Of a stretch of DNA of 64,000 bases, positions 12,005 through 50,879 are shown in pieces. Positions within the stretch are counted from its first letter, which is position 1; each line of letters opens with the position of its first letter. A model generated the notes under the pieces. The model worked only from the letters and a program-made list of their open reading frames with translations, was not told where the DNA came from and did not search any database. The stretch lies in assembly GCF_030435755.1 (NCBI RefSeq), contig NC_080855.1, forward strand, positions 24,658,445-24,722,444, given 5' to 3'. The position numbers and the translations under genes are program-made. This DNA is from Ochotona princeps. Taxonomy: Eukaryota.

Positions 12005-12086
12005 CCCGCTCTGTTCACCATGTGCGCTGGAAACGAGCTCTTCTACTGCCTGCTCTACTTGTTCCACTTCTCCGAGGGACCCTTAG
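12005..12086 (+). CDS. CDIPT: CDIPT exon 5 (PALFTMCAGNELFYCLLYLFHFSEGPL)
   Basis: acceptor tgtgcag|CCC; donor TTAG|gtacgc; frame continuous. Confidence 0.8.
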
Positions 12087-14080: not shown

Positions 14081-16429
14081 GCTTTCCAGGTGTGTGCTGA
14101 ACAGGTGCTGTGCCACAAGGAGATGGAGGCTTCGGGAGGGCTGTGGCCTGGGTGGGTGAGCGTCAGAATCTCCCATCTTAGCATTCAGATTGAGCGGCCC
14201 TTCCCTCACCTTAAGGGCAGTGTGGAGTGAGCCCTCAGTCACCTTGCCCGTCTTACCGTAATTCCCTGCTTCCTTGAGCCTGCAGCAAATGACCTTGCAC
14301 TCCTGGGTTGGATGTCCCGGATGGCACCTTCCTGATGCCCCACAAACACACAGGCTGGTTTGTTCCGCTCTGAATCAGAACTGCTGGAACTCAGTCACTG
14401 AAATGTTGTGATTTGTATTCCTGCTTTACATCCCTGCACTGACATTAAAAAAATCCATGCATGAAAAAAAAAAAATCCACACATGTGTGGCAGTGGAAAA
14501 ACTGCCAAAGCTTGGTTTCTGGACTCCATTTCCCCACGGAGAGTCAGTCCCAGACTTAGGTCTCTTCCCTGGCAGGTAGTGGGGCATTGTATGTGTGTGG
14601 GAGTTCTAACTTCAGAACTACTAATTACAGGGTGAAAAATTTTTGAGAATGAAATATTGCCCATCAGAACTCCTTTGTCAGGGCACAGTCCCTGTAGGTG
14701 AGCACAAGTACCAAGGCAAAGAACAGCCCAGCCCAGCTCATGTTGGGCAGCAGCACCCACAGGCATATGTGTGGCTCAGATCTGGAGGCAGGCCAGGCTG
14801 GGCCGGTTCATAATACCCATTGGCAGATCTGAGAACCAGGATGGAGTGCAAGAGAGGCCAAGTCGGCCCACAGCACCAACCAGTTCACATTAGGGCCGGG
14901 ACTGGGAGCTAACTGCCCCAGGTTGGGAGGCATCATTTGCCAGCACAAGCTGGAATGGGGACAGACCGGGCCAGGCCAGGCTGCAGCACCTGCTGGCAAA
15001 TGCCGAGGTGAGACAGGCCATGCCAGACTGGGCCGCAGCACCCACCAGCACATGCGAGACCGTGGGGAAGGTAGCGGAGAGGGTTTTGGGGGGTGGTGAG
15101 AGGAAGTATGTGAGGCCTGGCAGGGGAATAATGGGGACTCCCTTGCTGGGACACTGCCCCTGCTGGTGAGCAGGAGAGCTGGGACTAGTGTCAAACCAGG
15201 CAGGGAACGGCTACAGCACCTGTTTACCTACATGTAAACTGGGTTAGGGGAAGACCCAGGCTAGGCTAACCGATTGTATCCATTGGGGCAGGCATGAGTC
15301 AGAATAAGGGCAGGTGGGTTGGGCTTTGTCACAGGATCAGCTTGTAAATGCTGAGACTAGGGACAAGTCCTGGCAAGTTAGACTGCAGAACCACCTGGAG
15401 AGTGCAAAGATCTGAGGCAAGGAGTTGGTCCAGTGGACAGGCTGTGGGCACGTCTTTGATGGGCTGCAACTCTCACTGGTGAACATGAGAACCAGCACTG
15501 GGGGCGGGCCTGGCATGAGTGTGGGCTGGAGAGCAGAGTTGGATGGATTGACTTAGGCTTCAATGCCCGATAATGTGTGTGAGATCTCAATGGGATGTGG
15601 GCCGATCAGACCAGTTTACTGCACATACTGGCAGGCACAGGAATAAGAGCTGGGGGCTGGTCCAGGGGTGGGGTGGAGTGGTTCCTGAGGGTCGCTCCTG
15701 CTGGGCTGCAGCTCCCCCTGGTGTACGTGAGGGCTAAGTGTGTGGTTGGCAGCGTTGGGCTGAGCCACAGTACTCACTGGTTTATAAGAGGAAAGCGGGC
15801 AGAACAAATTGATTAACTATCCCAGAGCATTTTGACAGCAAATCTCTGCTCAAATAGAGACTCAGAGGTGGACTGTGTCAGCCAATTGACCTTGGAAGGA
15901 TTTCTTCATCCTTGGAGCAGCGATATTAACAGCTTCTCAGAACTATAAAAACCACATGAGCAGAACCCTCAGAAAATGCTCCACAACAGGGACACTGGGA
16001 TGACATTAGGTGGCAGTTCCCCATCCCCCACATGGTCTCAGCTCCCTCACCTATCTGTGAGTGTGGTGATCCATTCCGTGGAAGCCTCCAGAAGTCACTC
16101 CTTCCTTGTCAAACATGCCCTCCACTGCTCCCACTCCAACATGTTCCAGGTTCCCTTCCCTGGGCAATTGGCAGATCACTCCCACCTAAGGGCTGGGGTG
16201 GCACAGCCTGGCCAGACATTCCCTGCATTCCCCACATGCCTTGGATTCAAAAATAGAATCAACAACTATGCTGGTACACTGGTAGAGTTAGCCTTAACCA
16301 GGTCCAGAATGCCCACCAGCAAAGGGCTGCTCTTCTCCAAGCCATGTAACTTCCCGAGGTACAAAGAAACCTTAGCTGTTGCCTACAGCTGGGGGTCTTC
16401 TTTAGTTTATTTTAATGAACTAATCTTAA

Positions 16430-18734: not shown

Positions 18735-18923
18735 CTAGGAAGCAGGCGGTGATGGGGGAAGCGCGCCCTCCTGCTGGCGGGGCCCACTGGCCGCCATGCT
18801 AGTTGGGGGCTGGCCGTTGTTGCCCAGTCCCAGCAGACCGTAGGCTGTGTTGAAGAGGTTGATAGGAGTGGAGCCGTCGGTGATGAGCGTGGATTTCAGG
18901 CCCAGGGATTGGAGCAGTTTGAC
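18735..18923 (-). CDS. MVP: MVP terminal coding exon ([44 protein letters not shown], stop TAG 18735-18737)
   Basis: ORF track 18735..19154; acceptor ttccag|GTC; matches human MVP ..[32 protein letters not shown].. Confidence 0.8.
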
Positions 18924-19190
18924 CTGGAAGAAGGGAGTGGGGTGCAGGGAGGCAGATGAGAAACTGCAGCCACAGTGGCTGGCTACTCTGCTCCTGTCTG
19001 CCAGCACCACATCAGGGATGGCCTCTTTGTACCAAAAGAGCTGCACTGCTGCCGCCCCTTTCATCTTACAGCCCTGCCTGGTTTTCTTGGCCTGTTGGTT
19101 TCTTGTCTCTCCTAAGAGCTGCAGCAGGACACCGTTCCCCAGCTTCACCCCCACCAGATGTTTCTGATGGTGTGTTTGCCTTCCTGATCA

Positions 19191-19439
<249 letters not shown>

Positions 19440-19715
19440 TTAGGTCATGTGGCCTCTGGGAGCTGTCCAGCACGTCACCCTGGCCAGCAGGCTAGGGGTG
19501 TATGTGTGTCAGTGTGTGTGGGGGTGGGGTGGGGAGGGAAACTGAGGCAGCCAGCTTGCAGACAGTTGGTGTTGCATCCGGGCTATGCCACCGCTTAGCC
19601 TGTGTGAGTGTCTGAGCTTACAGCCTGACATCAGGGCATCTGGTGTCCCCCTCCAGCGATGCAGCCACCCCAGACCCCAAGGCCGTGTCCCGCCCCCCCT
19701 TGCCCCGCCACTTGC

Positions 19716-19842
19716 CGTCTCAATGGCCAAGGCCTGTGCCTTCAGCTTGGCCTGCAGCACGGAGCCTTCGCCCTCGATGCGTGCTGCCTCGGCGCGGGAC
19801 TCAGCCTCTGCCTTGGCAGTGCCAGTACTCTCCACTGCCATG
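19716..19842 (-). CDS. MVP: MVP exon ([42 protein letters not shown]), followed by a GC donor
   Basis: ORF track 19509..19982; acceptor ccacag|C; exon ends ..GAGACG|GCAAGT, so the intron is of the GC-AG class. Confidence 0.75.
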
Positions 19843-32487: not shown

Positions 32488-32612
32488 CTCTCATTGTCCT
32501 GTCGGATGTAGGTCTTGGGTCCCACCTCCACACGAGACACATTGCTGTTCTGGTCCAGCACATGGATGTAGTGGTACGGAGGGATACGGATGATGGACTC
32601 TGTGGTTGCCAT
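32488..32612 (-). CDS. MVP: MVP first coding exon ([41 protein letters not shown]; ATG at 32612-32610)
   Basis: ORF track 32334..32804; matches human MVP N-terminus [42 protein letters not shown]; donor AGAG|gttggc; 14 coding exons total 2640 nt = 880 codons. Confidence 0.85.
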
Positions 32613-32884
32613 GGTAACTCCTGCAGGGACAGCTGCACAGGTGGGGAGGAGACACACGATGAGCACAGGGTGCCTGCCACGAGGCGGGCTGGGGCCCAGG
32701 GTTGGGCTGTGTATGGGGCAAAACATCTTTTTTCTTCCCTCCCAGGACAATACAGTCCTTCCCAACCTCACCTTTGCTGAGACCCACTTGTCACAATGAG
32801 GCACAGAAGGTTAAGGTACCAACTCCTCCCCTCTCAATTCCCATCACCTCCCTCCCTCTAAAGAGTCCACGGGGACCCATGCTG

Positions 32885-34319: not shown

Positions 34320-34650
34320 TGGGGGGCCTGGCGGCGTGGCCTAGCGGCTAAAGTCCTCACCTTGAACGCCCCGGGATCCCATATGGGTGTCGGTTCTAAT
34401 CCCTGCAGCTCCACTTCCCACCCAGCTCCCTGCTTGTGGCCTGGGAAGGCAGTTGAGGACGGCCCAAAGCCTTGGGACCCTGCACCCGCATGGGAGACCT
34501 GGAAGAGTTCCAGGTTCCTGGCATCGGATCGGTGCGCACCGGCCCGTTGCGGCTCACTTGGGGAGTGAAACATCGGATGGAAGATCTTCCTCTCTGTCTC
34601 TCCTCCTCTCTGTATATCTGACTTTGTAATAAAAATAAATCTTTTAAAAA
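34320..34650 (+). repeat. C-repeat SINE, full length, plus orientation (copy 1 of a head-to-tail triplet)
   Basis: ggcctggcggcgtggcctagcggctaaagtcctcaccttgaacgccccgggatcccatatgggtgtcggttctaatccc..ctgactttgtaataaaaataaatctttt then A10. Confidence 0.8.
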
Positions 34651-34664
34651 AAAAACCTGCATGG

Positions 34665-35340: not shown

Positions 35341-35964
35341 AAAGTTATAAAAAAACAAACTTGCATGAAGGGTTTCCCATGAAATAATGGGTTAGGACAA
35401 TCCCAGGGTGAAAAGACATGCACAGTGACATGTCAGCCATGCCAGGAATTTCACCAGCAGCTGGAGGCTGCTGCCCAAGGTGGCAATGCAAGGACCTTGG
35501 CTTATCTCCCAAGGAGACGGGACAACAGGTACAGAAAGGACAGTTCACCGCATGACCGGATCCCGGATTCCCAAGTCCAGCAGCCAAGGACAGCCCCCTC
35601 TTGGAATACATCTGACCTCCCCACACCGCACCAAACAGCCTGTCAGAGGCTCAAGTGCTACGGGTTTTGTAGGCAGCTGGGCTCCGCCTTGAGGGTCTGC
35701 AGGCACTTGGCCCACAGCGGATCTGCATCAGCGTCTCTCTCCTTCCCACCCTTTCCTCGCTGTTTCTTCCTCCCTGCCGGAGCCAGCAAGACAACCTTGG
35801 ACTTGGTGAGTTAGGGCCAAGGATTCACACCCAAGCTACTTGGGCCTGCACTTGTGGTGGGCTCTGTTTCCTGAGCGTTTCCCCTTAGTCTCACTTCTGG
35901 GCACACTTCCCACAACAAGGCACGCTACTCTGCTTCTCATTCTTTTTCTTTTTTTTTTTTTTTT

Positions 35965-36630
35965 TTTTTAAGATTTATTTTATTTTTATTGCAAAGTCAT
36001 ATATACAGAGAAGAGGAAAGAAAGAGAGGAAGATCTTCACTCTTTTGGGGGAGTGGTAATTCACTCCCCAAATTACCACAATGCCCGGTGCTGCACCGAT
36101 CCGAAGCCAGGAACCAAGAACTTCATCCAGGTCTCCTACATGCGGGTGCAGGGATGGGTTCCCAAGGCTTTGGGCCATCCTTGAATGCTTTCCCAGGCCA
36201 CAAGCAGGGAGCTGGATGGGAAGTGGGGCTTGGGTTAGAACCAGTGCCCATATGGGATCCCAGTGCATTCAAGGTGAGGGCCCTAGCCGCTAGGCCACCA
36301 CACCAGGCCCCCTCATTCTTTTTTAAAGATTGATTTATTTATCTGAAATTCAGAGTTAACAGAGAAAGTTCTCCCACCTGCTGATTTACTCCCCAAATGG
36401 CTGCAATGGCCTGACCCCGGGCCGGTCTGAAGCCAGGAGCCAGGAGCTTCTTCTGGCCCTGGTACGTGGATGTAGGAGCCCAAGAACATGAGTAGTCTGC
36501 TGTTTCCCTAGGCACGTGAGCAGAGAGCTGGACTGGAAGTGTAGCAAGCAGGACTTGAACCAGTGCCCATATAGGACTGACACTGCAGGCAGAAGATTAT
36601 CGTGCTACATCATGGTGCCAGCCCCCTAGA
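35965..36630 (-). repeat. two consecutive C-repeat SINEs, minus orientation, preceded by T28
   Basis: two complete minus-orientation SINE units (about 35965-36310 and 36325-36630). Confidence 0.7.
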
Positions 36631-37914
36631 TTCACTTCTACTCTTCAACTACTGCTTGTTCCGGAAGCTATGTTGATATGTGCAAGGGGTGGCTCTCCTT
36701 CTACTCCAGTCTCTTGTCTGGGACAAAGACAGGCATTCTAAATGCAGATACATATAAGGTGCAAGAATTGGTAACCAAATGTATTCAAACGCAAATTCAC
36801 GTACACACAGCAGCATCTGGTGCACCACGCGGAGAAAAATCTGCTATGTGTGGACAGCAGGGTCAGCAGAGACTGACCCAAAGGAGGAGGGGCAGGGCAA
36901 GAAGGAATGGGTGCCCACCCAGCACCTGCAGCTCTGGTCTACGGAGTGAGGCCCCGCTGAGGGAAAGCCTGGTGCTGCTCCAGGCAGCCTGGGACAAGGG
37001 TGTGTCCTGCTTGACAAGTCAGGGGCTGGTGACCACCAGCTCAGCCCACCCTCAACGAGCTTCCCTGGTTGCTCTTGGGTATCTCCAGGCTGGGAATGCC
37101 GGGATCCTGGCTCTTGTTCTTAGCCTCATAGCTGCTTCCTCATCTACCAAATGGGAGCAGGTCTCTGCAGCCTGTCTGGTTGTGAGGATTCAGGGCAGAG
37201 GGGCCGGCTCTTCCCCAGCACGCTGTGTCCCCCTATCCTGATGGGGGTGGGGACAAAGGGGATGCTACTAGAGGTCTCCCCCCGCCACACACACACACCA
37301 AGCATCCCTGGTTTCTGGTTAGGAAGGTGACAAGACCTGTAACACAGCACAGAGGGGGTACCTGATGACCAAGGAAAGCTTTTCCCAGGAAGTGCGGGAA
37401 GGGGAGGAGGGCTCCTCTACCATGTGGAAGCTGGGCCAGGACACCAGATGGGGAAACAGGAAGGGCCAGGGCTGCAGGAAGAAAGTTGAACCTGCGCCTG
37501 GCAGCAGGCTCTAGCCTAGCCTCCACCGTTCCTTGCTGGCCCAGCTCCCATGCCCCTGTGGCTGAGGCCTTGCCACCATCTGCTGGCCCAGCTGGGCCCA
37601 GTCAAGGGGGGGGGGTGCCGCACACAGCTCAGTGACTCAGCAGGAATCATCCTCACGGCCCATCAGGCCCCATTCCTGTCGGGTTCCCAGGTCAGAGCAT
37701 CTCACCTCCCCTGATCACAACCCTGGAGCTGAACCTTCACCCAAAGTCACCAGGGGACAGAGCTTGTCTCCCTCCACACCCACCACTCACGGAGGGGAGT
37801 CGGGGAGCCACTTGACTCTGGCAGTGTGCTTGGGACACGAGGCAGCCTGATGCGGCTCATCGGTTCTTGTGGACAGTAGCTCACCGTGCCAGGGCCCTGA
37901 AAAGAACAATGGCA

Positions 37915-38499: not shown

Positions 38500-38935
38500 A
38501 ACATCGGGCCCGGCGACGTGGCCTAGCGGCTAAAGTCCTCTCCTTGAACGCCCTGGGATCCCATATGGGCGCCAGTTCTAATCCCGGCAGCTCCACTTCC
38601 CATCCAGCTCCCTGCTTGTGGCCTGGGAAATCAGATGAGGACAGCCCGGAGCTTTGGAACCCTGTGCCCATGTAGGAGACCTGGAAGAGGTTCCTGGTTC
38701 CCGGCTTCGGATCGGTGCAGCACCGGCCGTTGCGCTCACTTGGGGAGTGAATCATTGGATGGAAGATCTTCCTCTCTGTATATCTGACTTTGTAATAAAA
38801 TAAATAAATCTTAAAAAAAAAAAAAAAAAGATTACTGTTAAAACCTTGGTCCAGCATCGTGGTGTAGTAGGTAAAACCGCTGCCTGTGATAATGACATCC
38901 CATATGGATGCTGGTTGCTGTCCCGACTGCCCTGC
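38500..38935 (+). repeat. C-repeat SINE (full length) plus the 5' fragment of another, plus orientation
   Basis: ggcgacgtggcctagcggctaaagtcctctccttgaacgccctgggatcccatatgggcgccagttctaatcccggcagctccacttcc.. Confidence 0.75.
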
Positions 38936-39465: not shown

Positions 39466-39544
39466 ATAACCGAGCCATGAGTCACTACAGATCAGCTTCA
39501 GGGTCAGCTGCGGGTGGTTGATATGGTGGCTCTTTTTTTTTTTT

Positions 39545-39880
39545 TTTAAGATTTATTTATTTTTATTACAAAGTCAGATATACAGAGAGGAGGAGAGATA
39601 GAGAGAAAGATCTTCCGTCTGATGATTCACTCCCCAAGTGAGCGCAAAGGACGGTGCTGTGCCGATCCGGAGCCAAGAGCCTGGAACTTCCTCCCGGTCT
39701 CCCACACGGGTGCAGGGTCCCAATGCTTTGGGCCGTCCTCGACTGCTTTCCCAGGCCACAAGCAGGGAGCTGGATAGGAAGTGGAGCTGCCGGGATATGA
39801 ACTGTCACCCAAATGGGATCCCAGTGCGTTCAAGGCGTGGACTTGAGCCGCTAGGCCACAGCGCCGGGCCCAATATGGTG
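39545..39880 (-). repeat. C-repeat SINE, full length, minus orientation, preceded by T16
   Basis: reverse complement of the consensus, ends ..ggcccggcgctgtggcctagcggctcaag. Confidence 0.75.
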
Positions 39881-41624: not shown

Positions 41625-41920
41625 GGGCCTGGCGTGGTGGCCTGGTGGTTAAAGTCCTTGCCTTGAATGCGCTAGGATCCCATATGGGCACCGATTCTAA
41701 TCCTGGCAGCCCTGCTTCCCATCCAGCTCCCTGCTTGTGGCCTGGGAAGACAGTCGAGGATGGCTCAAAGCCTTGGGACCCTGCACCTGTGTGGGAGACC
41801 TGGAGGAAGCTCCTGGCTCCGAATCAGCGCAGCACTGGCTGTTGTGGTCACTTGGGGAGTGAATCATTGGACGGAAAATCTTACTCTCTATCTGATCTTC
41901 CAATTTAAAAAAAAAAAGTG
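41625..41920 (+). repeat. C-repeat SINE, full length, plus orientation
   Basis: ggcctggcgtggtggcctggtggttaaagtccttgccttgaatgcgctaggatcccatatgggcaccgattctaatcctggcagccc.. Confidence 0.75.
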
Positions 41921-43814: not shown

Positions 43815-44095
43815 GGCTCAGCGCCATAGCCTAGCGGCGTAAGTCCTCACCTTGCACATGTCAGGATCCCATATGGGCACCTGTTCTAATCCCAGCAGCC
43901 CGCTTTCATCCAGCTCACTGTTTGCAGCCTGGAAAGGCAGTCCAGGACGGCCCAAGGGCTTGGGACCCTGCACCCACATGGGAGACCCAGAAGCTCCTGG
44001 CTTCAGATCAGCACACCGCCAGCCATTGTGGACACTTGGGGAGTACATCAGTGGACGGAAGATCTTCCTCTCTGTATAACTGACTTTCCAAAAAA
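43815..44095 (+). repeat. C-repeat SINE, plus orientation, A10 tail
   Basis: ggggctcagcgccatagcctagcggcgtaagtcctcaccttgcacatgtcaggatcccatatgggcacctgttctaatcccagcagccc.. Confidence 0.75.
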
Positions 44096-44109
44096 AAAAG
44101 TCTTTGTCC

Positions 44110-44400
44110 CGGGGCTGGTGATGTAACAGGCTAATCCTCTTCGTGCAGCACCAGCATCTCATATGAGTGCCTGTTACAGTCCTGGCTGCTCTACTTGTCA
44201 TCCAGTTCCCTGCTAACGCACCTGGGAAAGCAGTAGAAGATGGCCCAAATCCTTGGGCCCCTGCTATTCACATAGGAGACCCAGAAGCTCCTGGCTCCTG
44301 GCTTTGGATCTGCCCAGCTGTAGCTCTTGGGGCAATCTGGCCATCGTGAACCAACTAAGATCTCTTTCTCCACAACCTAACTTTTAAGTAAAATAAAAAA
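44110..44400 (+). repeat. C-repeat SINE, plus orientation, abutting the previous copy's A-tail
   Basis: ..gtcctggctgctctacttgtcatccagttccctgctaacgcacctgggaaagcagtagaagatggcccaaatcc.. Confidence 0.7.
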
Positions 44401-44404
44401 AAAC

Positions 44405-44409
<5 letters not shown>

Positions 44410-44460
<51 letters not shown>
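44410..44460. repeat. (TA)n microsatellite, about 24 units, with adjacent (CA)n and (TA)n
   Basis: tatatatatatatatatatatatatatatatatatatatatatatataatatacacacacacacatacatatatatatat. Confidence 0.9.
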
Positions 44461-44486
<26 letters not shown>

Positions 44487-45171
44487 AAAATCGTTGTTCC
44501 TTTTATTTATTTGAGAGGCAAAAACAGAAACAGAGTGTACACCGACCCACTGGGCCACTCCCTAAATGCCTGCAAAGGCCCAAGGTGAGAGTATTACCAG
44601 CAGAAAGCTGGCCTTAGGAGTGGGGCCAGGACCCAAAGACAAAAAATTTAGGTATGAGATGCAGACATCAAAACCGGTGGCTTGAACAGCCATGCCAAAC
44701 GCCCACCCCAGCTTCCTATTTTTTCAAGACTTCCTCCCCTCAACCCCATCCTCCCTGCCCCAGAGATGAACCATGTCAGGTAAACTCAAGTTCACTCTGA
44801 GTGACTTCTGCAAGCACCAAGGCCCACAACAGGCACAGCCTGGCGGCAGGTACAGCGTCTGGCAGAGCTGAGAGCTCTGAGGAAGTGCCTGAGAGGACAG
44901 GCCCAAGTTGGGGTCCCTGGGAGGAACAGGTGGGAGAGTAGGCAAGCACCAGACTGGCTGGGAGTTGGAATGGATGCCCGCCAGTCCCCTAGCCCCAAAG
45001 GGAGAGCGGCCCCGGGGCTGCGAGGCAGCCATCTATCAGTTGATCTACTGTTGCTGTAAAAGCCACAGAACCCCAGCACAGAAAGCAAAAGCGCACACCC
45101 CTCTTCCCCTTTACACCTGCCACAGCAGAAGCAGGACCCAGGAGGCCTGCCTCAAGGGGACACAGACTCAC

Positions 45172-45290
45172 CAATATGCGGGGGGTTTCGGGGCCAGGAC
45201 CCTGTACTCCACAGTGCTGTGTTCCTGTCTACTATACACGCCACACCGGGGCCAGCCTCGGTCCGGGAAACTCCCTTGCCCAACCCCAGG
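45172..45290 (-). other. MVP: putative MVP non-coding exon 1 (5'UTR), spliced to the first coding exon at 32612
   Basis: minus-strand consensus donor ATATTG|GTGAGT at 45171-45166, directly downstream of a GC-box cluster; in human the MVP 5' end lies inside the PAGR1 3' region; the 5' boundary (TSS) is not determined. Confidence 0.4.
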
Positions 45291-45380
45291 GATCACTTCC
45301 CGGCCGTCGGGGGCGGGCCCGGGGCGGGGCCTGGCGACTTAAAGCCCAAGGGCCTTCCGTGCTGCCAGCAGCTCACACAC
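45290..45380 (-). promoter_or_regulatory. MVP: putative MVP promoter, TATA-less, with Sp1-type GC boxes
   Basis: ggccgtcgggggcgggcccggggcggggcctggcg; human MVP is known to have a TATA-less GC-box promoter. Confidence 0.4.
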
Positions 45381-45561
45381 AGCACCCCGCGGTCAAGCCA
45401 AGTTGGGGACCTTCTGCCTCAGCCAGCTCAGGGAACCACCTTGCTGGGTCAGAGGGCGGGCTGAATGGAGGGTGCTGGGTTAGCTTCAGCTCCATTTGGC
45501 TTTAATTTTCCATGTGGGCTCTCCGCTTCAGCTATCTCAAGGAGACAGGAACACTGCATCT

Positions 45562-45567
45562 TTTATT
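45562..45567 (-). terminator. PAGR1: PAGR1 polyadenylation signal (AATAAA on minus strand)
   Basis: plus-strand tttatt about 130 nt downstream of the PAGR1 stop. Confidence 0.55.
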
Positions 45568-45695
45568 TTAGCTCAGGCCCCTAGAGTCCATGTTCAACAA
45601 CAAAACAAACAGCACATGCCCCCTCTCCTGCAAGGAGCTGTGTGGGCCTTCCCGGCACCCCCTTGCAGGATTGTCTAGGCTCCAGTGGCCAGCAA

Positions 45696-46125
<430 letters not shown>

Positions 46126-46591
46126 GGGGCCTGAAGGCTTCCTTCCCCAGATGTGGAATCTTCTAGAGCATTTCCAACAGAGACATGACTGGTGTTTAAA
46201 GAATCATTTGCTGGCTGAGACTGGAAGCAGGGAGACCGGCTCGTGTGCTGGCCCAGGCGGGATGGTGGATTGGAGGAAGATGTGTCAATGGGGCGGCAGC
46301 AGATGGGGTTGGTAATGTGGGGGAGGCAGAGCCAGCTCATGGCACCTGCTGCTGGCTCAAGGGTCTGGGTAACAGATCAGGAATGACTGCAAAGTCAGAC
46401 ACTAGGGGTGAGAACCAGATCAGAGAACAGGGCTGTGGTTCCGGCAAGTGAGGAAGGGGAGGGACCAGCAACAGAGCTATCTGTAAAGTGTTGTTGTGCC
46501 GTGGGTTGGGGGCCCGCCCCAGCAGCCACCTGCAGGGTGGCACCTGAAGCATCAAGCAAAGGCTTCTGGAAGGGAGCCGTGCTGTGTGTAC

Positions 46592-47301: not shown

Positions 47302-47960
47302 AGGCCCTTAGGGACAAGGGAACCCGGAGGTGACAAGAGATACCAGAGGCCTAAGCCGGGGTCCTTGCCCCGCCCAGGGAGGGGGCTTCCTAGGGGGGTT
47401 TGAAGGAGTGTCTCTAACCAGTCAGGGTCTACTGGCAGCGTTCACGGCCAGAAAGCCAGTCCCCGGGAGGGGACTCTGGGGTCCCGTCCAAGGACCCCGC
47501 CCACGGCCCGAGGTCCCGTACTACGGCGTTTCCAAGAACCCGCAGCAAGCACTTTCTGAGGCGGCGATGGGCAGGCCCACTCTTCCTGCCTTTCCACCGG
47601 CCTCGCTCCACACCGGTGCCCGGAGCCCTCTCCCCAGGCCTGGAATTGGGGCCCCGACGACTTAGCTGCTGTACGCACCTGAACCTAACGCCCGCCTCCC
47701 GGGTTGCGCAGGGTCACAGTGCGCAGGCGCACAGAAATGGCGCGGGAGGCTATGCTCTAGTGAAAGCTACTGGGGAGACGCAAAGCAAGGGAAGGCTTGC
47801 ACATGCGCAGACCGACGCTGGGGGGGGGTGAGTGGGTGGGGCAGCCAACAGGTTTTGGCCCACATTAAAGATGGCCACCGAGACGGCGCATGCGTACACC
47901 CCACCCACTTGGGCTCTGCCTGTAAGGCGGCAGCACCGCTAGCCGGGCGGGACCGACGCA
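47300..47960 (-). promoter_or_regulatory. PAGR1: CpG island and promoter of PAGR1
   Basis: CpG-rich (..gcgcaggcgcac..cgcatgcgta..) immediately upstream of PAGR1 exon 1. Confidence 0.6.
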
Positions 47961-49318: not shown

Positions 49319-49688
49319 TTAGGGAGTAGTGCATAGGTCGGTTCAGGTTGGGAGAAGGCAGCCCAGCAGGTAAGAAGAGAGAGAGAGAGAGAAAGAGATA
49401 CAGTCATCCAGTCCCATGGGCACTGTGGGGACCGGGGAGGGGGAAGGTTGAAGCAGCAGGGCAAGAGGTCTCTCCCACCCATTGGAGAAGGGCACAGCCA
49501 GGTCCTGAAGGAGGTAAGCAAGGGCCCTGTCCCTGGGGAAGTGGGATCCCTGCAGAGAGGGGAAGGGACAGCATGGTTACTCGTGTGGTTTCGTGCCAGC
49601 GGTGGCCAACAGGACACTGAGAGCCAAGACAGGTGATAGGCCTCCCCCCTCCCGCCCCTGCCCAGGGCCAGGGTCCCGTGGGGCTCAC

Positions 49689-50507
49689 CATGACAGCATA
49701 AGCAAAGGCCACGATGTTGACAGGCCACATGGGGCAGAAACACGACAGGATGGCAAGGATGATGTAGTCTCGAGGTTTCTGGGTACCTTCGCCCCCCTCC
49801 ACCCCTGCCAGCTGGGAGCTAGGGTGGCGGCTCAGGCTACCTCGGGGAGATCCCGGGTGCCCACCATGAGCTCTTCCTTTTCGATCCTCCTCAACCAGCT
49901 GCTGCAACACCCGAGGGGGAGCCCCGTTGGCTGGGGGTGGGGAGTGAGGCTGGGGGGCTTGGCCCTCTTTCCCATTACCAGCCTCGAGTGGGACCACTAC
50001 CCCATTTTCTTGCCTTCCCCCCTCATTCTTGGTCAGGCTCTCAGGGGTGTGGTCTTGGCTCAGGGATTCTGGCTGGACAGCCGGCTTGAGGCTGGGCTGG
50101 GGCTCCTCCGGCTGGGGAGCAGGCTCTGCGGCTGGCTCAGGTGGGGTCGCCGGCTGCAGCTCGGAGCCCTGATCTGCAGCTGGGGCCTCCCTGCTCTCCT
50201 CTGCTGTGGAGGCTGCTTCTTGGCATGCTTCTTGGGGACTGGAGTTGGTCTTGGAGTTCCCTCCTGGGCTAACACTGAGGTCTGTGGCCTGGGCTGGGGT
50301 CTCAGAGGTTTCAGGAGCTGACCCAGCCTTTGGCTCTCCTGAGTCCACGGGGGCCACGTTGGGGTCTGGGTCTGCCTGTTGGGGGGCCTCGGGCTGGGGT
50401 GGAACCCCTGTTGGTGGGGCTTCAGAGGGGCCTGGCCCTTCTTGCTGGGTCTCAGGACTCCTTTCCGCCTCGTTTATCTCAGAGACCTCGGAGGTGCTGG
50501 CTGCCAT
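49689..50507 (-). CDS. PRRT2: PRRT2 exon 2 CDS ([58 protein letters not shown]; ATG at 50507-50505)
   Basis: ORF track 49404..50804; proline-rich N-terminal half then first TM helix; matches human PRRT2; donor ATG|gtgagc; acceptor for the exon near 50537. Confidence 0.85.
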
Positions 50508-50879
50508 CTTGACAGAGGGGCAAGGGGAGAGGGGTCCCTGCGGGCGGGCGGAGGATGGCCAGTAGAAAAGGAAGCAAATCCTGAAAGAGGAGACAGGCTT
50601 CGTGTGAGGAGGCAATGGGCGCGCTGAATGCTGCAGCCCCAAGAGGGCCAGGCTCCTGTCTCCCAGCCAGCCTCTTGCTACCTCTAGGGAGAGGGAGAAA
50701 AGTTGGGGCTTCCTTTCCTTGGGGTGGGATACCCCTGAGGAAGGAATGTCTTTCTCCGAGGCTTTGCGAGCCACCACCCCCCGGGGTGTGGGGGGGAGAA
50801 TCAACCCTTTACAAACAGGACTCTCCCCGGGGGTCGTCAGGCCAGTAGAGGCACTGGCACCCCCAAATCAGACAGCTGT

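Follow-up and report, generated by a model that had tools for sequence, protein, structure and literature searches.

The DNA analysed here, which we refer to as the window, is a 64,000-nt stretch that carries PAGR1 and MVP in tandem on its minus strand; unless stated otherwise, all features described below lie on this strand and their coordinates are given in its direction. Reconstruction of PAGR1 from three exons in the window yielded a protein of 247 aa whose full-length sequence shows 100% identity with Ochotona princeps XP_004587191.2. For MVP, tblastn with the human protein, used as a guide only, led to 14 coding exons (32612–18735) encoding an 880-aa protein identical to XP_004587190.2, ‘major vault protein isoform X2 [Ochotona princeps]’. 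The two accessions are encoded on one 38-Mb contig. These identities assign the DNA to the American pika and not to the rabbit, the species named in a preliminary description of the locus.

Read in the direction of transcription, the last PAGR1 coding exon ends with the stop codon TGA (45698–45696), which is followed by a poly(A) signal, AATAAA (45567–45562), by a spacer containing an ATTAAA (45506–45501), by the candidate promoter and exon 1 of MVP (block 45344–45172) and by the MVP ATG (32612–32610), with which the coding part of MVP exon 2 (32612–32488) in the 880-aa reconstruction begins. The AATAAA is unchanged across a five-genome alignment, and RNA contigs of the sister species Ochotona curzoniae cross over it. 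The ATTAAA is embedded in the block GGAAAATTAAAGCCAAATGG, most columns of which are invariant in the five-genome alignment; it could serve PAGR1 as a further poly(A) signal or act as a distal regulatory element. Two GC boxes are found 232–258 nt past the PAGR1 AATAAA, and a splice donor follows at ∼390 nt past it; from the last base before this donor (45172) to the MVP ATG the distance is 12,560 nt. On re-reading the sequence, the positions that the preliminary description had given for the donor and GC boxes, for the poly(A) signal of PAGR1 and for the MVP ATG all proved correct, as did its distances of ∼200–400 bp beyond the AATAAA and 12.5 kb to the ATG exon, and the cluster of GC boxes that it had placed at 45300–45360 resolves into two, at 45331–45309.

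At its upstream end, the promoter block has a conserved CTTTAAGT (45344–45337), which reads CTTTAAAT in other mammals in the cross-species alignment. It includes the sole TA-rich element of the block, TTTAAG (45343–45338), which was rejected as a TATA box because it lies ∼75 nt upstream of the presumed start and of the longest 5′UTR end from another mammal, and is thus too distant. Downstream of it are the two adjoining GC boxes, GGCCCCGCCCC (45331–45321) and GGGCCCGCCCCC (45320–45309), which by motif match are putative Sp1/Sp3 sites. These are followed by a second motif match, the ETS-like CCGGGAAGTGA with a GGAA core (45303–45293), whose GGAAGTGA part is the best conserved sequence of the block. 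Since an exact-match search showed that CCGGAAGTG is not present in the region and the conserved form is GGGAAGTGA, we label this element only as ETS-like. A further element, TTCCCGGAC with a TTCCC core (45269–45261), resembles half a STAT/GAS site. In the alignment, the species have only TTCCC in common, without the GAA half; equating TTCCCGGAC with the human GAS site was dropped because conservation is limited to TTCCC.

With GC boxes at 45331–45309, close to the presumed start, and with no TATA box found at –30, the block has the layout of a TATA-less GC-box promoter, and the composition of 45200–45400 is promoter-like: its GC content is 0.677 and its CpG observed/expected ratio 0.62, which makes it a borderline CpG island (≥200 bp, GC ≥0.5, CpG observed/expected ≥0.6). 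The ratio drops to 0.50 across 45150–45450, and it is 0.23 at 44000–45000 and 0.17 upstream of the MVP ATG exon. In the window as a whole, GGGGCGGGG occurs 12 times, compared with 2.1 expected, and its copies are clustered in GC-rich islands. No Pfam match was obtained for four of the longer ORFs overlapping 44,900–45,500 (three on the plus strand and one on the minus strand), and Rfam gave no match inside 45150–45400, the two sub-threshold matches from a scan of 44000–46500 lying outside the feature.

In order to compare the block across mammals, we used the PAGR1 neighbourhoods of Sapajus apella (monkey), Lutra lutra (otter), Choloepus didactylus (sloth) and Dugong dugon. Standard blastn against these four orthologous loci aligned the PAGR1 coding exon only and not the promoter, and the promoter footprint became visible with sensitive blastn and MAFFT. 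In all four placental genomes a colinear series consisting of CCTTTAAAT, GCCCCACCCC, CCGGGAAGTGATC (which contains GGAAGTGA) and TTCCC was found downstream of PAGR1, so that the order CTTTAA, GC/CACCC box, GGAAGTGA, TTCCC is common to Sapajus, Lutra, Choloepus and Dugong. The first pika GC box aligns to GCCCCACCCC in Sapajus, Lutra and a Myotis RNA contig and to GCTCCACCCC in Choloepus, and GGAAGTGA is identical in all seven of the sequences that cover it (the window, O. curzoniae, Sapajus, Lutra, Choloepus, Dugong and the Myotis contig). When conservation was expressed as the fraction of the four genomes with a base identical to that of the pika, in 25-nt bins, it peaked at 45300–45276 (0.75, the highest value) and at 45350–45326 (0.64), compared with 0.25–0.32 in the upstream flank (45425–45351) and 0.37–0.46 just downstream (45275–45201). 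From these alignments, we regard the promoter block as a phylogenetic footprint.

The human MVP promoter has been described as TATA-less and as carrying both a GC box and a GAS-like site (PMC3216873); its occupancy by Sp1/Sp3 is reported in PMC2685645, which cites Steiner 2004. The fit to a human TATA-less promoter with GC boxes that the preliminary description had proposed agrees with these accounts, and the Sapajus orthologue aligns to the pika block. The likeness to the human MVP (LRP) promoter (Lange et al. 2000; Steiner et al. 2004, 2006), as summarised in PMC3216873 and PMC2685645, lies in the lack of a canonically placed TATA box, the GC box and the STAT/GAS-like TTCCC; p53 and inverted CCAAT elements are reported for the human promoter in addition. 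The pika differs in its two tandem GGGGCGGGG-type GC boxes, where most other mammals have one CACCC-type box. The arrangement predicted for the pika gene is also that of human, with a short untranslated exon 1, a long intron and an ATG exon, the gene lying directly behind PAGR1 and sharing its strand.

The putative non-coding exon 1 of MVP extends from 45267 to 45172, a length of ∼100 nt without an ATG. Its 3′ end is supported by the data given below; its 5′ end is approximate and may lie up to ∼30 nt further upstream, the limit used here being the alignment column (∼45267) at which the longest 5′UTR contig without read-through, L009 from another mammal, starts. Around the donor, which we call D1 (GTGAGT, 45171–45166), the minus strand reads ...CGCATATTG/GTGAGTCTG (the slash marks the exon–intron boundary), the end of the exon being ...CCCCCCGCATATTG/GTGAGT with 45172 as the last exon base. 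Donors were scored with a simple weight matrix built from approximate consensus frequencies. D1 scored 8.8 compared with a mean of 7.6 for 13 coding-exon donors of MVP, which places it among the top ∼2% of GTs on the strand, and no other strong donor follows the GC boxes within 250 nt (the next scores are 6.1, 4.9 and 4.5). The site is conserved in O. curzoniae, where position 12054 of the genomic locus L016 is followed by GTGAGT.

RNA evidence was sought among Logan RNA-seq contigs encoding MVP. For lagomorph MVP transcripts, a 107-aa N-terminal query gave only short proteins of other species, and a full-length MVP query gave no lagomorph match above 93%. Neither the PAGR1 protein of O. princeps nor the Psammomys protein led to any recorded contig. 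A query with the PAGR1 protein of O. curzoniae led to the genomic locus of O. curzoniae (L016) and to nine RNA-seq contigs of this species from nine runs (L017–L025; SRR22936743/744/846–849/853/855/856). All nine contigs are spliced at both PAGR1 introns, are 98.8–100% identical to L016 and differ from each other by SNPs. Their 5′ ends are scattered over ∼120 nt (window equivalents 47598–47715). Their last block, by comparison, runs uninterrupted for 727 nt (728 in L018) from the start of the last PAGR1 exon, past the stop codon and the AATAAA and on through both the GC boxes and the ETS-like block. Eight of the nine stop at L016 position 12054, which is orthologous to 45172 and is followed in the genome by GTGAGT, and the ninth stops at 12055. 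As a control, unspliced, genome-colinear contigs from other runs cross the donor unbroken (L027, 47334–44782).

De Bruijn assembly contigs stop at graph branches. Splicing at D1 is the best explanation for an RNA-specific break that recurs in nine samples and falls right before the strongest donor: the paths that would part here are the spliced and the unspliced one, or those to two acceptors, and the contig ends have the signature expected of a splice branch. The junction between exon 1 and exon 2 is what we infer from these stops; among the contigs retrieved for either pika, no RNA spanning the two exons was found. Since all of the contigs that end at D1 contain PAGR1, they prove transcription and a graph branch at this position but not the promoter from which the spliced molecules came. 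An MVP exon 1 with its donor at 45172, as the preliminary description had suggested, is supported by the conserved block, the donor score and the ends of the nine O. curzoniae contigs.

In other mammals, RNA contigs that encode MVP extend into the orthologous sequence. A Myotis contig (L007), whose protein is 99.3% identical to Myotis davidii MVP, begins at the poly(A) signal of PAGR1 (CTAAAATAAAAAATAC), crosses the promoter block to ...GCAGTCAGCCACACTTCTGGAT and continues with GCACAGGTGTAACC-ATG and the complete MVP coding sequence. In a contig from another mammal (L005) the corresponding junction reads GGAGTCTTGCAGTCAGCCACACTTCTGGAT/AAGTTACT-ATG, so that ...GCAGTCAGCCACACTTCTGGAT is joined to the ATG exon in both; in the Sapajus genome the same exon end is followed by GTGAGTAC, a donor that we call D0. 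The contigs L008–L015, from a third species, have a longer leader, the exon-1 part of which aligns through D0 to the region of D1, and in L009 the sequence that precedes the ATG exon aligns to 45267–∼45180, the part of the window (∼45267–45180) to which L005 and L007 align as well. Judging from these alignments, the orthologous stretch is MVP 5′UTR in other mammals, with a variable position of the donor.

D0 lies ∼40 nt upstream of D1 and is the end of exon 1 in a primate, a bat and another mammal. In O. princeps a remnant of this ancestral donor is found at 45213–45204, with 4 nt (AAGT) missing and a score of –0.7: the window reads CACTGTG(4-nt gap)GAGTAC where O. curzoniae has CACTGTGAAGTGAGTAC and where Sapajus, at the equivalent place, has TAGAT/GTGAGTAC. 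Because the ancestral donor (GAT/GTGAGTAC in Sapajus) is deleted in O. princeps, the pika exon 1 ends ∼40 nt further downstream, which is a difference from human MVP. In O. curzoniae D0 is intact (GTGAA/GTGAGTAC), with a strength, calculated by hand, of ∼8.4 that is similar to that of D1, yet the RNA contigs of this species pass through it to D1; this fits the use of D1, given the assumed behaviour of the assembler. A third site, D2, is found in a conserved intronic block, CTGCTTCTGCTGTGGCAG/GTGTAA (45136–45110, exon end at 45117), whose score of 4.5 makes it a weak candidate for an alternative donor in the pika. Its equivalent in Lutra and Choloepus is a good donor (GGGGCAG/GTAAGAC), and Dugong and Sapajus have GC and GG, respectively, at the donor position. 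The three sites lie ∼40–55 nt apart and each is intact in some mammals only. If the donor is regarded as mobile, O. princeps, without D0, would depend on D1, and O. curzoniae, which has both, appears to use D1.

Since PAGR1 RNA is contiguous with the MVP 5′ end in both pika and Myotis assemblies, we considered whether D1 might be used mainly by PAGR1 read-through, as part of a conjoined RNA or of an alternative PAGR1 3′ exon, with MVP starting elsewhere. All RNA contigs that reach the donor carry PAGR1 sequence. Those of the pika join spliced PAGR1 coding sequence to MVP exon 1, and the Myotis contig L007 spans from the PAGR1 poly(A) region to the full MVP coding sequence. However, short-read contigs such as these can merge or chain overlapping transcripts, so that contiguity is no proof of a single molecule. 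In addition, the conserved GC-box/ETS block has no obvious role in a 3′UTR, the contigs without read-through, L005 and L009, have their 5′ ends just downstream of it, and its motif content is shared by the human MVP promoter as described in PMC3216873 and PMC2685645. We therefore consider it improbable that read-through accounts for most use of D1.

The preliminary description had raised read-through together with a spacing of a few hundred bp between PAGR1 termination and MVP initiation, and both agree with what was found, namely a spacer of ∼220 nt from the PAGR1 poly(A) signal to the MVP core promoter and assembly contigs that are contiguous across it. In these two respects, the latter observed in pika and bat, the gene pair resembles tandem read-through pairs; it differs from them in that PAGR1–MVP is known from short-read contigs and not as a chimeric protein or a regulated conjoined mRNA. 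We found no literature on PAGR1–MVP read-through. In human, the annotations of the two genes overlap.

The predicted intron 1 of MVP (45171–32621) is 12,551 nt long if the proximal acceptor is used and 12,539 nt long with the distal one, and it holds several copies of a dispersed repeat of ∼330 nt. The preliminary description had given the ATG at 32612 as the target of splicing; the sequence instead shows two tandem acceptors, ctgtgcAG/CTGTCCCTGCAG/GAGTTACC (32634–32613), with which exon 2 would start at 32632 or 32620 and contribute 20 or 8 nt of 5′UTR before the ATG. Short and longer exon-2 leaders are seen in RNA contigs of other mammals (L005 and L007).

If pika MVP started within intron 1, or right before its ATG exon, 45150–45400 would be only an extended PAGR1 3′UTR. 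One place for such a start is an additional coding exon in the annotation of O. curzoniae (window 37860–37790), the GenBank MVP of this species being a 909-aa protein that starts at L016 position 18892, and in the annotation of Lutra the CDS also starts in an upstream exon. However, the extra exon is 93% identical between the two pikas, with a 3-nt indel, which is no better than the surrounding intron (89.7–90.5%), and the RefSeq protein of O. princeps that matches exactly begins with MATTES. Furthermore, a pyrimidine tract and two AGs precede the ATG exon, the CpG ratio upstream of it is as low as 0.17, and the 5′UTRs of other mammals derive from the exon next to PAGR1. Such a start is, in our view, very improbable. 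Least credible of all is a functionless chance meeting of a GT-consensus hexamer with GC-rich sequence, since, common as GGTGAGT is in the window (19 copies compared with 10.1 expected) and although every GC-rich island of the window has GC boxes, conservation of the block extends over several placental orders, the ends of nine RNA contigs coincide with the donor (in one case a base beyond) and other mammals transcribe the orthologous sequence as MVP 5′UTR. It is this conservation and RNA evidence, and not the motifs alone, that raises the finding above chance.

None of these alternatives fits the conservation and RNA data as well as a promoter and exon 1, and we consider it highly probable that the region is the proximal promoter and the 5′ non-coding exon 1 of American pika MVP. 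The core promoter would lack a canonically placed TATA box, begin ∼220 nt past the poly(A) signal of PAGR1 and consist of the two GC boxes, the ETS-like GGAAGTGA element and the TTCCC element, with transcription-factor binding predicted from the motif matches. MVP transcription would start at approximately 45300–45260 and produce an exon 1 of ∼100 nt ending at 45172, the splicing in O. princeps being presumably the same as in O. curzoniae. TTG/GTGAGT would then be spliced over the 12.5-kb intron to either of the tandem acceptors, 8 or 20 nt before the ATG, so that the leader would read ...CCCCCCGCATATTG joined to (CTGTCCCTGCAG)GAGTTACCATGG. Some PAGR1 transcripts would pass the AATAAA and cross the MVP promoter into exon 1, which would cause the two units to overlap at the RNA level.

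The tandem acceptors, whose AGs are 12 nt apart before the ATG, recall the 5′UTR variants of human MVP. In the work of Holzmann and colleagues (2001), human MVP is reported to have long and short leaders that arise through alternative 3′ splice sites of intron 1, the long variant reportedly carrying an inhibitory upstream ORF. The pika differs in that its 12-nt extension is without an upstream ATG, and an inhibitory upstream ORF is therefore not predicted.

A further interpretation, which we regard as doubtful, is that the 3′ end of MVP exon 1 (D0, D1 or D2) is mobile in evolution and that, in addition, the PAGR1 read-through into the MVP promoter and exon 1 in pika and bat provides a conserved coupling of the two genes. 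Such coupling could take the form of a conjoined PAGR1–MVP RNA or of promoter occlusion, and the read-through would then not be noise.

We conclude that the arrangement is ordinary and already known, since an orthologue of the promoter and first exon described elsewhere was to be expected here, and that it discloses no new biological principle. Its main value is for annotation, in that it gives pika MVP a probable 5′ end and a 12.5-kb first intron that is missing from CDS-only annotations and into which two GenBank annotations put doubtful upstream coding exons. The RNA-continuous spacing of ∼220 nt between the PAGR1 terminator and the MVP promoter is relevant to the editing or deletion of PAGR1 or MVP in the block syntenic to 16p11.2.

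The genes were identified by rebuilding their products from the genomic sequence. The reconstructed MVP protein matched the O. princeps RefSeq entry XP_004587190.2 exactly, and the reconstructed PAGR1 was identical to XP_004587191.2, annotated on the same 38-Mb contig. The DNA thus comes from the American pika rather than from a rabbit. A PRRT2-like CD225 ORF (49404-50804), PAGR1 and MVP follow one another in this order, all on the minus strand, in agreement with the 16p11.2-syntenic block of the fetched loci. Exact reproduction of the MVP protein requires splicing from a GC donor, ACG/GCAAGT (19711-19716, minus strand), at the intron after coding exon 13, whose end lies at 19716.

The region around the donor GTGAGT (45171-45166, minus strand), at the end of the putative non-coding MVP exon 1, was compared with related sequences. 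An ancestral exon-1 donor, D0, situated ∼40 nt upstream, is used in RNA from the bat and another mammal and is found in a primate genome as GAT/GTGAGTAC. Compared with O. curzoniae (∼12005-12020 of its locus), O. princeps lacks the 4 nt AAGT at 45204-45213 on the minus strand, a deletion that abolishes D0 and leaves only a remnant. D0 is intact in O. curzoniae, yet the O. curzoniae RNA contigs continue across it.

Two conserved blocks were found on the minus strand in this region. The first, GGAAAATTAAAGCCAAATGG (45493-45513), is strongly conserved, with the majority of its columns invariant across five mammals, and contains an ATTAAA (45506-45501) ∼60 nt past the PAGR1 AATAAA. This block could serve PAGR1 as an additional poly(A) signal, or it could be an element that regulates MVP from a distance. 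The second, CTGCTTCTGCTGTGGCAG/GTGTAA (45110-45136), lies within MVP intron 1, 55 nt past the GTGAGT donor; the corresponding site is a consensus donor, CAG/GTAAGA, in the otter and the sloth and carries GC in the dugong and GG in the capuchin. It is possibly an alternative end of exon 1 or an intronic element.

GenBank lists an MVP of 909 aa for O. curzoniae and one of 906 aa for Lutra lutra (position 15112 of the otter locus), and in both annotations the coding sequence begins in extra exons inside intron 1. The pika exon (MSRIRQRVPS...; 18892-18960 of the O. curzoniae locus, 37790-37860 here, minus strand) is 93% identical between O. princeps and O. curzoniae, with an additional 3-nt indel. 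Since it is conserved no better than the flanking intron, this exon is probably an ab initio artefact. Part of the 12.5 kb of intron 1 is made up of copies of a SINE-like dispersed repeat of ∼330 nt, present in both orientations (41626-41893, 39536-39870, 38503-38823, 35958-36364 and 34324-34655). A minus-strand Rfam match to mir-297 at 44408-44479 scored 33.8 bits, far under the gathering score of 90, and is probably due to chance.

RNA assemblies are contiguous from PAGR1 to MVP in two distant mammals, Myotis (positions 1-407 of one contig) and O. curzoniae (nine contigs). This contiguity suggests that transcription regularly reads through the PAGR1 poly(A) site.
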